Source: a virus
Lineage: Duplodnaviria > Heunggongvirae > Uroviricota > Caudoviricetes
Virus record (IMG/VR): IMGVR_UViG_2740892231_000007
Strand: one strand, 5' to 3'
Length of the DNA: 9,779 bases
The notes beneath the pieces were generated by a model that did not search any database, had not been told where the DNA came from, and worked only from the letters and a program-made list of their open reading frames with translations. Both the position numbers and the translations under genes were made by a program. Shown piece by piece: positions 1 to 9,779 of the stretch; position 1 is the stretch's first letter, and the number at the start of each line of letters is the position of its first letter.

Positions 1-1242
1 ATGGCGAGAAAAACACCCCCATTAACCACGGTGCAGATCAAAGCAGCCAGACCAGCGGAAAAGGAATACACCCTACAGGACGGCGGAGGGCTTTTTCTCC
101 TGGTCAAACCGTCCGGATCAAAACTCTGGCGATTTTCCTACTACCGGCCATCGGACAAAAAAAGAATATTGCTGAGTTTTGGATCGCTTGATGATGTTTC
201 CCTGGCTGATGCCAGAAAACGCCGTAGCGAGTACAGAGCGTTAATCAGTGCCGGAACTGACCCGCAGGGCCATGAGAAGAAAAAACGAGAGGCAGAGGCC
301 CGAAGACAAGGGAACACGTTCGAAAATGTGGCGGCGGCATGGTACCAGGTGAAAATCAGCCAGAATCTGGCCCCCAACACGATTAAAGACATCTGGCGAT
401 CGCTGGATAAATATGTATTCCCGTTCATCGGCAACACCCCAATAGACACCCTGACCGCTCGCAGGTTCGTTGAGGTGCTTACCCCCATCAAGGAGCGCGG
501 CAACCTGGAAACACTCAAACGGGTTTTACAGCGCGTTAATGAGGTAATGGATTACGCCGCCAACAGTGGGCTGATTGATGCCAATCCGGCTATGAATGTG
601 CGTAAGGCGTTCCCCTCCCCTGTAAAAAAACATATGCCAACAATCCGCCCCGAACAGTTGCCGGAGCTTATGCAGGCTTTATCAGTATCGGCAACAGAAC
701 GGCAGACCAGATTACTGATTGAATGGCAGTTACTGACCGTAACCCGTCCCGCCGAAGCGTCATCAACGCGGTGGGATGAAATCGACCTGGACGCGCAACG
801 CTGGACGATACCCGCCGGACGCATGAAGATGCGCAGGGATCACGTTATCCCACTTTCCGGTCAGGCTATGGCGGTGCTGGAGGCCATGAAACCAATCAGC
901 CACCACCGCGATTATGTTTTCCCGAGTCTGAAAGACCCACGGCAGCCAATGAACAGCCAGACAGCAAACGCAGCATTACGACGCATGGGGTTCGCTGGCG
1001 TGCTGGTGTCTCATGGATTACGCGCCATATTCAGTACAGCAGCGAACGAGGAAGGATTCGAGCCGGACGTAATCGAGGCCGCACTTGCCCACGTCGACAC
1101 TAACGAAGTGAGACGGGCATACAACCGGAGCAACTACATAGAAAAACGCGTGGTGCTTATGCGCTGGTGGGGCGAATTTGTCGAGGCTGCGGCGACGGGC
1201 GTAACCCTCGCCAGTGGTAAAAGGGGTATCCGAGCCGTTTAG
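1..1242 (+). CDS. int: Tyrosine recombinase / integrase, P4 (CP4-57) type
   Basis: 413-aa ORF. The N-terminus LTTVQIKAARP..EKEYTLQDGGGLFLLVKPSGSKLWRFSYY is the arm-binding (DUF4102-like) signature. Catalytic motifs are present: R in LTVTRPAE, HxxR in HGLRAIFST, and H..Y in AHVDTNEVRRAYNRSNY. Confidence 0.95.
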   Translation: MARKTPPLTTVQIKAARPAEKEYTLQDGGGLFLLVKPSGSKLWRFSYYRPSDKKRILLSFGSLDDVSLADARKRRSEYRALISAGTDPQGHEKKKREAEARRQGNTFENVAAAWYQVKISQNLAPNTIKDIWRSLDKYVFPFIGNTPIDTLTARRFVEVLTPIKERGNLETLKRVLQRVNEVMDYAANSGLIDANPAMNVRKAFPSPVKKHMPTIRPEQLPELMQALSVSATERQTRLLIEWQLLTVTRPAEASSTRWDEIDLDAQRWTIPAGRMKMRRDHVIPLSGQAMAVLEAMKPISHHRDYVFPSLKDPRQPMNSQTANAALRRMGFAGVLVSHGLRAIFSTAANEEGFEPDVIEAALAHVDTNEVRRAYNRSNYIEKRVVLMRWWGEFVEAAATGVTLASGKRGIRAV

Positions 1243-1247
1243 CTGTA

Positions 1248-1295
1248 CAGAAAACCAGTAAAAACTACGAAAACCATGTAAAACCGTCGTATAAT
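1248..1295 (+). promoter_or_regulatory. Phased A-tract tandem repeat ending in a perfect TATAAT
   Basis: GAAAACC (1250-1256), GTAAAAAC (1258-1265), CGAAAACC (1268-1275) and GTAAAACC (1278-1285) recur about every 10 bp, forming a roughly 20-bp unit repeated twice. TATAAT lies at 1290-1295. The -35 position (ACGAAA) is poor. Confidence 0.4.
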
Positions 1296-1319
1296 TGCAT
1301 CAAATTTAACGACAAGGCC

Positions 1320-1571
1320 GTGAAACATGAAACCGTTAAGATGCAAAAAAATTTCAGATGCAATTGCGACGGGCTGCAACTGGCCCTGATGGTTCAGCAT
1401 GAATTTTGGTCAACCTACGATCCGGAGGACAGAACGACGGCCCCATCAAAAAAACAGGTAGTAGATTTCCTGGTATCCCGTGGGGCATCCAGGAATATGG
1501 CTGAAAGTATCGACAGGGTAGTTCGTCCGGCAACCATGAAGACCGGAGGCAGGCCAAAAAAATGGCGGTAA
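1320..1571 (+). CDS. Hypothetical small protein, possible HTH. The start is uncertain: GTG 1320, ATG 1341 or ATG 1389.
   Basis: 83-aa ORF. The C-terminal part KKQVVDFLVSRGASRNMAESIDRVVRP..GGRPKK looks HTH-like and basic. A strong intrinsic terminator follows. There is no clear SD sequence. Confidence 0.5.
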   Translation: MKHETVKMQKNFRCNCDGLQLALMVQHEFWSTYDPEDRTTAPSKKQVVDFLVSRGASRNMAESIDRVVRPATMKTGGRPKKWR

Positions 1572-1580
1572 CAATCCTCA

Positions 1581-1606
1581 AAGCGGCAGAAATGCCGCTT
1601 TTTTTA
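1581..1606 (+). terminator. Rho-independent terminator
   Basis: 8-bp stem AAGCGGCA / TGCCGCTT with a GAAA loop, followed by a T run (1601-1605). Confidence 0.8.
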
Positions 1607-9240: not shown

Positions 9241-9244
9241 CAAC

Positions 9245-9268
9245 AAGGCGGCACCAGCCGCCTTTTTT
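9245..9268 (+). terminator. Rho-independent terminator
   Basis: Stem GGCGGC / GCCGCC extended by A-T pairs, with an ACCA loop, followed by T6 (9263-9268). Confidence 0.8.
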
Positions 9269-9275
9269 GCGGGTC

Positions 9276-9370
9276 CTCCTGGTGGGGTGGGCCTGAACAC
9301 GGGGCGGGCGGCGCGGAAAAAAGCGCATTTTTGTGATTTTATCGTCATCATCATCATGTGTGTAACCTAT
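9276..9370. repeat. Conserved intergenic cassette, copy B
   Basis: Blocks occur in the same order as copy A: CTCCTGGTGGGG (9276-9287), GGCCTG (9290-9295), CACGGGGCGG (9298-9307), GGCGCGGAAAAA (9310-9321), GCGCATTTTT (9323-9332), GATTTTAT (9335-9342), then a CATCATCATCAT run. Confidence 0.8.
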
Positions 9371-9497
9371 TGTTTTTAATGTGGTTGATGCAAAAAAGAT
9401 GATGATTGTGGTTAATTTTTGTTCGACATCTTTTAGCGTGACAGATTCTTTACAAAAAATCTGAGCTTGTTTTCTTCACCAGCGCGATGGGGGCACA

Positions 9498-9779
9498 ATG
9501 ACAGAAGCCGAAATACTGGGATTAATCCGCCGCGTCGCCGGAATCAGCCAGCAGGCTGACGAACAGGCCACGCAGCCGGACAGCATGACCGCCGAAAATT
9601 ATGCGCGTGTGGTTGCTGAGGTGATGCGCCGTGATGGTATCCAGCTTAATGATGCGGATATGCGCGACATACGGATCCGCGTTCTGGAAATGCTGGCCTA
9701 CAATCGCCGCGTTGAACTGTATCGGGAGAAAGAAAAAATTACGTACCACTGGAAAAAGCCGGAGCGGTTACGGCGTTAA
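9498..9779 (+). CDS. Hypothetical protein in head-module position (possible head completion/connector role, by position only)
   Basis: 93-aa ORF with GGGGG 5 nt upstream of the ATG. It is the first gene after the capsid gene. No family recognised. Confidence 0.55.
   Translation: MTEAEILGLIRRVAGISQQADEQATQPDSMTAENYARVVAEVMRRDGIQLNDADMRDIRIRVLEMLAYNRRVELYREKEKITYHWKKPERLRR

Follow-up and report, generated by a model that had tools for sequence, protein, structure and literature searches.

The 9,779-nucleotide stretch of viral DNA examined here (IMG/VR virus record IMGVR_UViG_2740892231_000007; hereafter the window, meaning the whole stretch) raises the question of what kind of phage satellite it represents, how such an element would be packaged and how it would be held in check. 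An initial annotation, made without database searches, had placed it on the int-alpA-rep-ori backbone of Gram-negative phage-inducible chromosomal islands (PICIs), with a capsid gene in addition, and had likened it to the capsid-forming PICIs (cf-PICIs). While the satellite character and the PICI backbone were upheld by our analysis, capsid gene included, the likeness to cf-PICIs was not. The window is very probably nearly the whole of a classical Gram-negative PICI of the EcCICFT073 / EcCI11128 lineage, inserted at tRNA-Pro proL, and not a capsid-forming element.

The boundaries of the island were determined from the Escherichia coli draft assembly GCA_000752815.1 (L010), which holds the window exactly, at positions 5431-15209. 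Compared to K-12 MG1655, the insertion in this assembly extends from 5215 to 15590 (10,376 bp), so that att-proximal segments of 216 bp (left) and 381 bp (right) fall outside the window. It starts 2 bases past the tRNA-Pro(GGG) gene proL, downstream of yejM, which maps proL as the integrase target, and stops just ahead of the terminator region of yejO. Leftward extension, suggested by the initial annotation as a way of finding a tRNA or attachment site, thus revealed a tRNA gene adjoining an att-bounded element of satellite size; a tRNA scan of the window found none, the gene sitting just outside. The context yejM / tRNA-Pro / island / yejO / narP recurred in strain 10 and five other assemblies, and the yejM site is that of the PICIs EcCIED1a.1, EcCIATCC25922 and EcCI11128 (Fillol-Salom et al. 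2018, Table S1). Arm-type repeats of sequence AGTTATACG lie inside both island ends, the common core is short (CTCTCGTG, within the 3′ part of the tRNA), and rightward of the last open reading frame (ORF) there is attR alone. At attR (L010 15583-15600; compared with K-12, L015 3275-3300), the core runs straight into AAGAAAAAACC, without the 15 nt CCGACCAAAAATCCC that K-12 has at the tRNA 3′ end and in the spacer. Excision would therefore leave a damaged proL, and tRNA damage of this kind at attR is typical for PICIs (HE-PICI paper). Directly after the last ORF, 5-55 bp beyond the right end of the window (L010 15215-15265), stand five GTGAC motifs at a spacing of ~11 nt (AGTAGTGACATACCGTGACGGAGAGTGACAACCAGTGACACGACGTGAC), which look like a protein-binding array.

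A cf-PICI would make its own small capsids and its own terminase and take only tails from its helper, and the genes missing here would then have to lie beyond the window. Such an element would have in common with our locus the int-alpA-rep backbone, which both kinds of PICI carry, and the pairing of protease and major capsid functions, here in one gene. The island, however, ends at attR ~380 bp past the window, with yejO and narP next in every assembly examined, and rightward extension met no portal, terminase or adaptor genes. Scans of all window ORFs against Pfam, NCBIfam and PHROG yielded no tail, holin, lysis, portal or head-tail connector genes and no match to HNH, TerS or TerL in any of the three libraries, nor was a portal or adaptor gene found in the remaining 381 bp. 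In contrast, cf-PICIs such as EcCIEDL933 (Alqurainy et al., bioRxiv 2022.09.08.507074), which resemble the window in their int-alpA-rep left half and in their protease and capsid functions, also encode portal, head-tail connectors, HNH, TerS and TerL, over ~15 kb. When components were counted by the rules of SatelliteFinder, the program itself not being used, the island reached at most 5 of the 11 cfPICI core components, where the loosest class requires 9; for want of terS, the same count would assign it to Type B. The island moreover carries phage-type cos sites for a helper's terminase instead. That it is a cf-PICI is, in our estimation, extremely improbable.

What the window does contain was first established by comparison with the two closest reference islands. 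Profile searches and the ORF map agreed with the gene order initially described (int, alpA, leftward genes, rightward operon, RepA-like helicase, iterons, PerC; Table 1), and the absence of tail, lysis and immunity genes was likewise confirmed, no lambdoid-type immunity gene being found in the window. EcCI11128, from E. coli O111:H- 11128, occupies the same site, with tRNA-Pro proL between yejM and yejO, and the AGTTATACG repeat, given as its 'att' in Table S1, is found here as the arm repeat. The two islands have 5.8 kb in common at 77-93% identity, comprising int, orf76, alpA, the segment from icd to DUF4222, and RepA; identity at the nucleotide level is ~93% across int, orf76 and alpA and 87% across the RepA replicon, and the RefSeq copies of alpA in strain 10 and EcCI11128 are one protein accession, WP_000387403.1. 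EcCI11128 differs in having terS and a separate major capsid gene right of its origin, whereas the window has PerC, two cos sites, a coupled small ORF, a ClpP/capsid fusion and orf93; from alpA to ylcI, EcCI11128 has another mosaic variant of the leftward block, 77% identical or unrelated. EcCICFT073 has 11 proteins in common with the window, nine of them at 68-100% identity, with 44% in the N-terminal domain of RepA, 24% in int and only a short match in alpA. It resembles the window in its leftward YlcI/YnfO gene, its small ORF directly ahead of the capsid gene, its two cos sites and its iteron origin 3′ of rep. It differs in its integrase and att site, in having a primase where the window has a RepA helicase, and in carrying a lambda gpE-like capsid gene with a gpD-like decoration gene where the window has the ClpP/capsid fusion. 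It also encodes RppA and has a PICI-specific cosB and an inverted cos2, whereas the window lacks Rpp and carries two cos sites in direct orientation, each with a phage-type cosB. These homologies place the island, itself a mosaic, in the classical Gram-negative PICI family, within a subtype already labelled by annotation pipelines. Over the N-terminal 141 residues of RepA (window 4571-4993), identity is to the N-terminus of the EcCICFT073 primase (L003 10242-10673), the catalytic parts being unrelated; this suggests a common N-terminal domain joined to exchangeable enzyme modules.

The same comparisons bear on two further readings of the locus. As a decayed lambdoid prophage it would have retained int, a head gene and the cos region and become immobile; the head gene and both cos sites are indeed of lambdoid phage origin, and islands of this sort have often been annotated as defective prophages (Fillol-Salom et al. 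2018). Yet its replication and regulatory genes are those of the published PICI backbone and not lambdoid, all island ORFs are intact, and the head gene shows a ratio of nonsynonymous to synonymous substitution rates (dN/dS) of ~0.2 even against a PICI copy 68% identical in DNA. Many genomes, furthermore, carry this 10-kb unit at the identical att site, with arm-type repeats at both ends, which makes an immobile remnant very unlikely. A P4-like satellite would also have a P4-type integrase, an AlpA/Vis-like helix-turn-helix (HTH) protein, an Icd-like gene and a length of ~10 kb, and int, alpA and a primase alone cannot separate the two families according to the authors of SatelliteFinder. No homologue of Sid, Psu, Delta, Epsilon or the alpha primase was found in Pfam, NCBIfam or PHROGs, however, the cos sites are of the lambda and not of the P2/P4 type, and the backbone is homologous to those of EcCICFT073 and EcCI11128, so that a P4-like identity has hardly any chance of being correct. 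The classical PICI is thus retained as the preferred identity in what follows.

The packaging route proper to a PICI would be provided in this island by two lambda-type cos sites, without TerS or Rpp; the ORF listing of the window contains no ORF of the size of Rpp (144-153 aa). The two sites are cassettes of similar make-up (A and B; Table 1) that stand on either side of the head gene. Both align with lambda cosQ (GGGTCCT) and cosN (ACG/GGGCGG...) and with cos1 and cos2 of EcCICFT073, and in the phage collection they matched the DNA that separates the Rz endopeptidase gene from terS in lambdoid phages, including many Stx-converting ones. Cos has its canonical position there. Cassette A is 89.9% identical over 168 nt to the cos region of phage 1720a-02 and cassette B 92.4% identical over 172 nt to that of phage Stx2_95, whereas A and B resemble one another only in the cosQ-cosN core (82% over ~100 nt) and diverge on their cosB sides. 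The cosQ and cosN of B are identical to those of both phages; the cosN of A is one base longer than the phages', as it is in the strain 10 island, and its cosQ is degenerate in the window's lineage. By homology, the cassettes are accordingly read as two lambda-type cos sites of different cosB type. The pair of terminator-led cassettes had been noted from the outset, but as an internal duplication and as a departure from the PICI backbone; the former was rejected, each cassette being nearer to a different phage's cos than to the other, and EcCICFT073 has two such sites as well.

Between the two phage groups, TerS is 77% identical, the differences falling in the N-terminal 60 residues and so in the DNA-binding region. 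This pattern fits two recognition specificities, and the island may be packaged by helpers of either the 1720a-02-like or the Stx2_95-like group. Among 5,426 complete E. coli genomes, helper-type cosB sequences of the A type occurred in 397 and of the B type in 622, many of these genomes being those of Shiga toxin-producing E. coli (STEC). In EcCICFT073, both cos sites are functional by experiment (Fillol-Salom et al. 2018), and cos1 has a PICI-specific cosB that is read by an Rpp-TerS complex (Fillol-Salom et al. 2018, 2019). Since the present island has neither Rpp nor TerS and has phage-like cosB on both sites, direct recognition by the helper terminase would be expected, as in the cos-type Staphylococcus aureus pathogenicity islands (SaPIs), and the island probably needs no Rpp. 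The Rpp-dependent cosB side of EcCICFT073 cos1, GACACCACCACCACTTGATTAATATT (L003 15600-15640), resembles that of cassette A and 1720a-02, GGCACCATCACCACCACTATAAGTTATTGATAT (window 6800-6840). A derivation of Rpp from the 1720a-02 TerS group was considered and found unsupported, RppA showing no BLASTP similarity to that TerS.

Each cassette opens with the strong intrinsic terminator of the preceding gene (-12.6 kcal/mol, z -3.5, for A; -15.3 kcal/mol for B), and a head gene is bracketed in this manner in two independent PICI lineages. With the degenerate cosQ and odd cosN of A, these features would also suit cassettes that are mainly transcriptional units, a terminator and a helper-activated late promoter insulating and driving the capsid gene, and not packaging sites. 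The Rz-terS homology, however, spans cosQ, cosN and ~120 nt of the cosB side, while the terminator hairpin is not common to the phages; B matches the phages fully in cosQ and cosN, and the equivalent sites of EcCICFT073 were shown to act as cos. Transcriptional and packaging roles are not mutually exclusive, and we regard a mainly transcriptional function as unlikely. The second lineage just referred to is the PICI of strain 53, located at the cspD-clpS site, in which two direct cos sites with differing cosB sides likewise surround a ClpP/capsid gene. There, the cos/capsid unit is followed by a TerS-like DUF1441 gene (L016 13115-13600), the product of which is 55% identical to phage TerS over its N-terminal 141 aa and diverged at its C-terminus; the cognate cos of this gene is like that of mEp460 as far as the start codon. 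In the window, a GC-rich hairpin with a minus-strand T-run, AGGCGCAAAAAAAGCGCCC, stands at 6923-6941, in the 290 AT-rich bp that separate cos A from the small ORF, with no minus-strand gene there in need of a terminator.

Head genes had been announced in the plural; the window holds a single one, a fusion of a ClpP-like prohead protease, a scaffold and an HK97-type major capsid protein. Its start is the ATG at 7351 and not the TTG at 7321. Along its entire length, the fusion shows 52% identity to the head protein that phages 1720a-02 and Stx2_95 encode after terS, terL and portal, and it retains the ClpP-type Ser (GMAASMA) and His (MIHAP) motifs. Comparison with a near-identical allele, with a PICI allele of 68% DNA identity and with the phage genes gave dN/dS values of 0.16-0.21, dS being saturated in the distant pairs. 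The capsid fusion is thus intact and under purifying selection, and together with the small ORF it forms a module present at ≥95% identity in 141 of the 5,426 genomes. In both PICI lineages (window and strain 53), the protein is without the Pro/Ala-rich linker of 30-35 residues that separates protease and capsid parts in the phage proteins (around residue 208). Capsid genes are found in 21 of 29 reference Gram-negative PICIs, and a CLP_protease late gene in some PICIs of E. coli (HE-PICI paper); our literature search found no experimental work on ClpP/capsid PICIs. A parallel is offered by SaPIbov5, which also carries its helper's cos site instead of a terminase subunit and encodes a homologue of the helper major capsid protein (Ccm), although it belongs to an unrelated Gram-positive lineage with the Stl repressor, its Ccm has no protease domain, and size redirection has been demonstrated there. 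By analogy with Ccm, the head gene here would most likely join or redirect capsid assembly by the helper.

The small ORF coupled to the fusion most likely starts at ATG 7160, with GGAGG 7 nt ahead, and its stop overlaps the ATG of the fusion as ATGA. Its family comprises only seven protein clusters, essentially all from E. coli. The coupling of a small ORF to a protease-capsid fusion, as first described, is therefore real; the ribbon-helix-helix (RHH) character ascribed to the small ORF is unsupported, its AlphaFold2 (AF2) model having a mean pLDDT of 65 and no fold match, and a small ORF ahead of the capsid gene is no departure from known PICIs, EcCICFT073 having one too. The EcCICFT073 ORF in that position, c1498, was considered as a homologue and rejected for want of any similarity, so that position is shared without homology.

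Having addressed identity and packaging, we turned to control. Between alpA and the rightward operon lie three leftward genes, encoding an Arc-like protein, a 75-aa product with no family match and a protein of the YlcI/YnfO family, and a minus-strand terminator-like hairpin follows each of them (at 2004-1977 in the case of the Arc-like gene). Leftward genes with an RHH fold had been proposed; the genes are there, and the fold is only moderately supported. The AF2 monomer of YlcI (pLDDT 84) has helices at residues 19-28 and 35-58, and hhalign aligned its strand and helix A with those of Arc (E 1e-3, probability 19%). Foldseek searches with the AF2 monomer models of YlcI and of the pre-capsid small ORF gave no significant match, as expected for small dimeric folds. 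Each of the two 21-nt direct repeats at the start of, and upstream of, the Arc-like gene holds a TTGACA, and the pair may represent a second operator or promoter pair.

Between the ylcI start (2959) and the Icd-like gene, a palindrome scan revealed three putative operator sites. They overlap a sigma-70-like rightward promoter detected by a promoter scan (TTGAAG 3021-3026, 18 nt, TATACT 3045-3050) and a leftward promoter-like site (3070-3043). An arrangement of three sites that differ in sequence from those of the window was likewise found in EcCICFT073, EcCI11128, strain 10, strain 53 and 12 loci of other genera, from as many further species of Enterobacterales; among the genera are Serratia, Xenorhabdus, Proteus, Pectobacterium, Cedecea, Morganella and Citrobacter. 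The leftward module and its operator array had initially been taken for a departure from the backbone, which this distribution contradicts; the impression of novelty is understandable, as the founding paper (Fillol-Salom et al. 2018) describes rightward transcription only.

Loci identical in the eight residues after the conserved KS motif of YlcI had the same operator, across genera as well. QK[LVI]QARAP was paired with (C/G)TGGA(T/C)TCCA in five of six loci, QKMSARVP with CTGGCACCCA and QQLNARFP with GTGAATCGCA. Over 16 related loci, with operator sites set by anchor motifs, the distance between these eight-residue segments correlated with that between operators (r = 0.62), and did so after controlling for the remaining YlcI sequence (partial r = 0.48, reached in 0 of 5000 permutations), which itself contributed nothing (partial r = 0.08). 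Because the operator covaries with its N-terminal segment, YlcI/YnfO emerges as a candidate repressor; a global repressor in Gram-negative PICIs has been called 'unclear' and AlpA an activator (Fillol-Salom et al. 2018). AlpA was rejected as the protein that binds the variable operators, since alpA is the same in strain 10 whereas the operators and the YlcI N-terminal segment are not. No paper on YlcI/YnfO function was found in the literature.

The leftward block has a second peculiarity on its opposite strand. A stop-free stretch of 482 codons, in the frame of the Icd-like gene, crosses the three leftward genes in antisense, together with their terminators and the operators; GTG 1914 and ATG 1965 are in-frame starts. 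The stretch has no stop in this frame against 24 and 32 in the other two plus-strand frames, and simulations in which the leftward proteins were held constant and intergenic DNA was shuffled gave 14-19 stops on average (mean 15.7 for the window), none of 5000 runs having zero. An open frame was also found in EcCICFT073 (433 codons; L003 7752-9053) and EcCI11128 (607 codons; L017 3207-5030), both of which keep it despite non-homologous DNA between alpA and ylcI, and not in strain 10 or strain 53, which are without a long open frame. In 10 of the 12 loci from other genera, an equivalent ORF (212-434 aa) starts 1-31 nt within the end of the upstream same-strand ORF, the overlap being the classic 4 nt in four of them. 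The antisense frame is thus kept open far beyond chance. Further stop-free frames were observed at L018 735-2039 (-) and L024 819-1988 (-), for an overall range of 390-600 codons.

An older annotation probably named this frame 'ORF3', and AlpA activates ORF3 expression (Fillol-Salom et al. 2018). Our best guess is that the frame is a translated spacer. It would spare AlpA-driven transcripts Rho-dependent termination on their way to the replication operon, and would at the same time collide with transcription of the repressor. The block between alpA and the replication operon could tentatively be viewed as a convergent-transcription switch not described for Gram-negative PICIs, a proposal suggested by sequence features that we hold to be rather doubtful as it stands. 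In the quiescent state, the RHH-like YlcI/YnfO protein would act as master repressor on the three operators over the rightward promoter. Upon induction, AlpA-driven transcription would proceed rightwards across the repressor genes, and the spacer frame (390-600 codons), extending from the stop of the upstream gene through the leftward genes to the end of the Icd-like gene, would be translated and so keep the transcript alive. Translation would guard it against Rho-dependent termination, and the repressor would be silenced via collision or antisense pairing.

Taken together and modelled on EcCICFT073, these elements suggest the following life cycle. YlcI/YnfO, as the repressor, would keep the rightward replication operon off until a lambdoid helper phage turned on alpA, the product of which would be the activator of the cycle (Fillol-Salom et al. 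2018) and possibly an excisionase. Int, with AlpA, would excise the island, RepA would replicate it from the iteron origin into concatemers, and the helper's TerS and TerL would recognise the copied cos sites and fill helper-made particles with island DNA. Several points weigh against this picture. With its longer cosN and degenerate cosQ, cos A may be weak or non-functional, and two direct cos sites 2.5 kb apart could, if both were used, cut the island in two. Deletion of the capsid homologue of EcCICFT073 changed neither transfer nor interference (Fillol-Salom et al. 2018). The RHH fold of YlcI is only weakly supported, given the low hhalign probability and the lack of a Foldseek match, and the covariation, drawn from related loci with anchor-defined sites, is suggestive and falls short of proof.

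The remaining features of the window are those of a PICI backbone (Table 1). The rightward run of overlapping ORFs, from 3156 to 5980, ends with the RepA helicase, as the initial annotation had it, which nevertheless missed the Icd-like gene that opens the operon; the RefSeq name for the homologue of the latter is 'host cell division inhibitor Icd-like protein'. Among the four small ORFs that follow, ORF 3576-4043 (155 aa) is 58% identical to EcCICFT073 in its N-terminal part. It is a fusion due to a 1-nt length difference, corresponding to two separate ORFs in close relatives (86 and 77 aa, L009 and L011) and in EcCICFT073, and the fused form was also seen in L012. The replication protein is a helicase and not the usual PICI primase, a replicon type also present in EcCI11128. 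Immediately 3′ of the rep gene stand six copies of the iteron AAAGTGAGG, one of them inverted, and seven of the eight AAGTGAG motifs of the window fall within 220 bp at the iterons, compared to 1.3 per whole window in shuffled sequences; the same origin layout has been described for Gram-negative PICIs (Fillol-Salom et al. 2018). PerC is an accessory gene typical of E. coli PICIs according to the literature, and the label of PHROG 66, matched by AlpA, is 'excisionase and transcriptional regulator'. The only ORFs of the window longer than 200 aa are int, RepA, the capsid fusion and the antisense frame. No family match was found for the 76-aa ORF in Pfam, NCBIfam or PHROG, PDB sequence searches gave nothing meaningful for the 93-aa ORF, the pre-capsid small ORF, YlcI or the Arc-like ORF, and PADLOC found no defence-system match among ten small ORFs. 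An Rfam scan of the whole window (E up to 1) returned three chance-level matches and no C4/CI-type antisense RNA.

Table 1. Position and supporting evidence of the features recognized in the window.
Feature	Position	Strand	Evidence or detail
P4-type tyrosine integrase	1..1242	+	Pfam Arm-DNA-bind_3, Phage_int_M, Phage_integrase; NCBIfam PRK09692 E 5e-166
Conserved 76-aa ORF (orf76)	1341..1571	+	RefSeq homologue WP_012817901.1 in strain 10 and EcCI11128
AlpA-like HTH protein	1739..1945	+	Pfam Phage_AlpA E 3e-3 (under cut-off), HTH_17; PHROG 66 E 1e-7
Long stop-free frame	1908..3356	+	482 codons
Arc-like (RHH-type) 59-aa protein	2096..2275	-	PHROG 228 'Arc-like repressor' E 4e-6; weak YlcI_YnfO_N match E 3e-3
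Two 21-nt direct repeats, TTT(T/A)TGTGTATTGACAC(G/A)TTA	2259-2279, 2300-2320	.	Repeat family D11, 90% identical
75-aa ORF	2495..2722	-	Gene call in L010 and L011; minus-strand terminator 2376-2342
YlcI/YnfO-family protein	2780..2959	-	NF041551 E 2e-20; 68% to EcCICFT073 homologue
Three palindromic sites, putative operators	TACTGGAATCCAGTA 2979-2993; AAGTGGATTCCACTT 3024-3038; ACTGGAATCCAGT 3048-3060	.	Palindrome scan
Icd-like gene, first in rightward operon	3156..3356	+	PHROG 6196 E 3e-40; 87.5% to EcCICFT073 homologue
Four overlapping small ORFs	3353-3586, 3576-4043, 4036-4269, 4275-4574	+	88-100% aa identity to EcCICFT073 over aligned parts
DUF4222 (last of the four)	4275-4574	+	Pfam E 2e-23
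RepA-family helicase, predicted replication initiator	4571..5980	+	Pfam AAA_25 E 3e-42
Putative replication origin	5981..6171	.	Two sets of AAAGTGAGG iterons around AT-rich stretch
Conserved small ORF after origin	6184..6441	+	PHROG 1231 E 1e-51; 84% to EcCICFT073 homologue
PerC-family regulator	6431..6703	+	Pfam PerC E 5e-45; 78% to EcCICFT073 PerC
Predicted cos site A	6709..6894	+	Hairpin 6709-6726, T-run to 6731; cosQ AGGTACT 6734-6740; cosN-like ACG/GGGCGGAGGGGCG 6762-6777; cosB side to 6894
Small coupled ORF, 64 aa	7160..7354	+	PHROG 4934 full length E 9e-51; alternative ATG 7127 = 75 aa
ClpP-like prohead protease / scaffold / HK97-type major capsid fusion, 629 aa	7351..9240	+	NF045540 E 5e-268; Pfam CLP_protease, Phage_capsid_4
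Predicted cos site B	9247..9433	+	Hairpin 9247-9262, T-run to 9268; cosQ GGGTCCT 9271-9277; cosN ACG/GGGCGGGCGGCG 9299-9313; cosB side to 9433
Last ORF, 93 aa (orf93)	9498..9779	+	EcCICFT073 c1504 homologue, 89% identical; PHROG 1561 E 2e-56

As a matter of classification, the island is ordinary. Its interest rests on the two cos sites without Rpp, on the ClpP/capsid module and, above all, on the YlcI-operator circuit and the antisense frame. By pairing phage-type cos sites that differ on the cosB side, a satellite might extend the set of helpers it can use; the arrangement also provides a link to the prophages of STEC. In two independent PICI lineages, purifying selection maintains a ClpP/scaffold/capsid polyprotein from which the same linker has been lost in both. 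Finally, the YlcI/YnfO gene, the three operators that covary with it and the antisense frame are concrete candidates for parts of the control circuit of Gram-negative PICIs.

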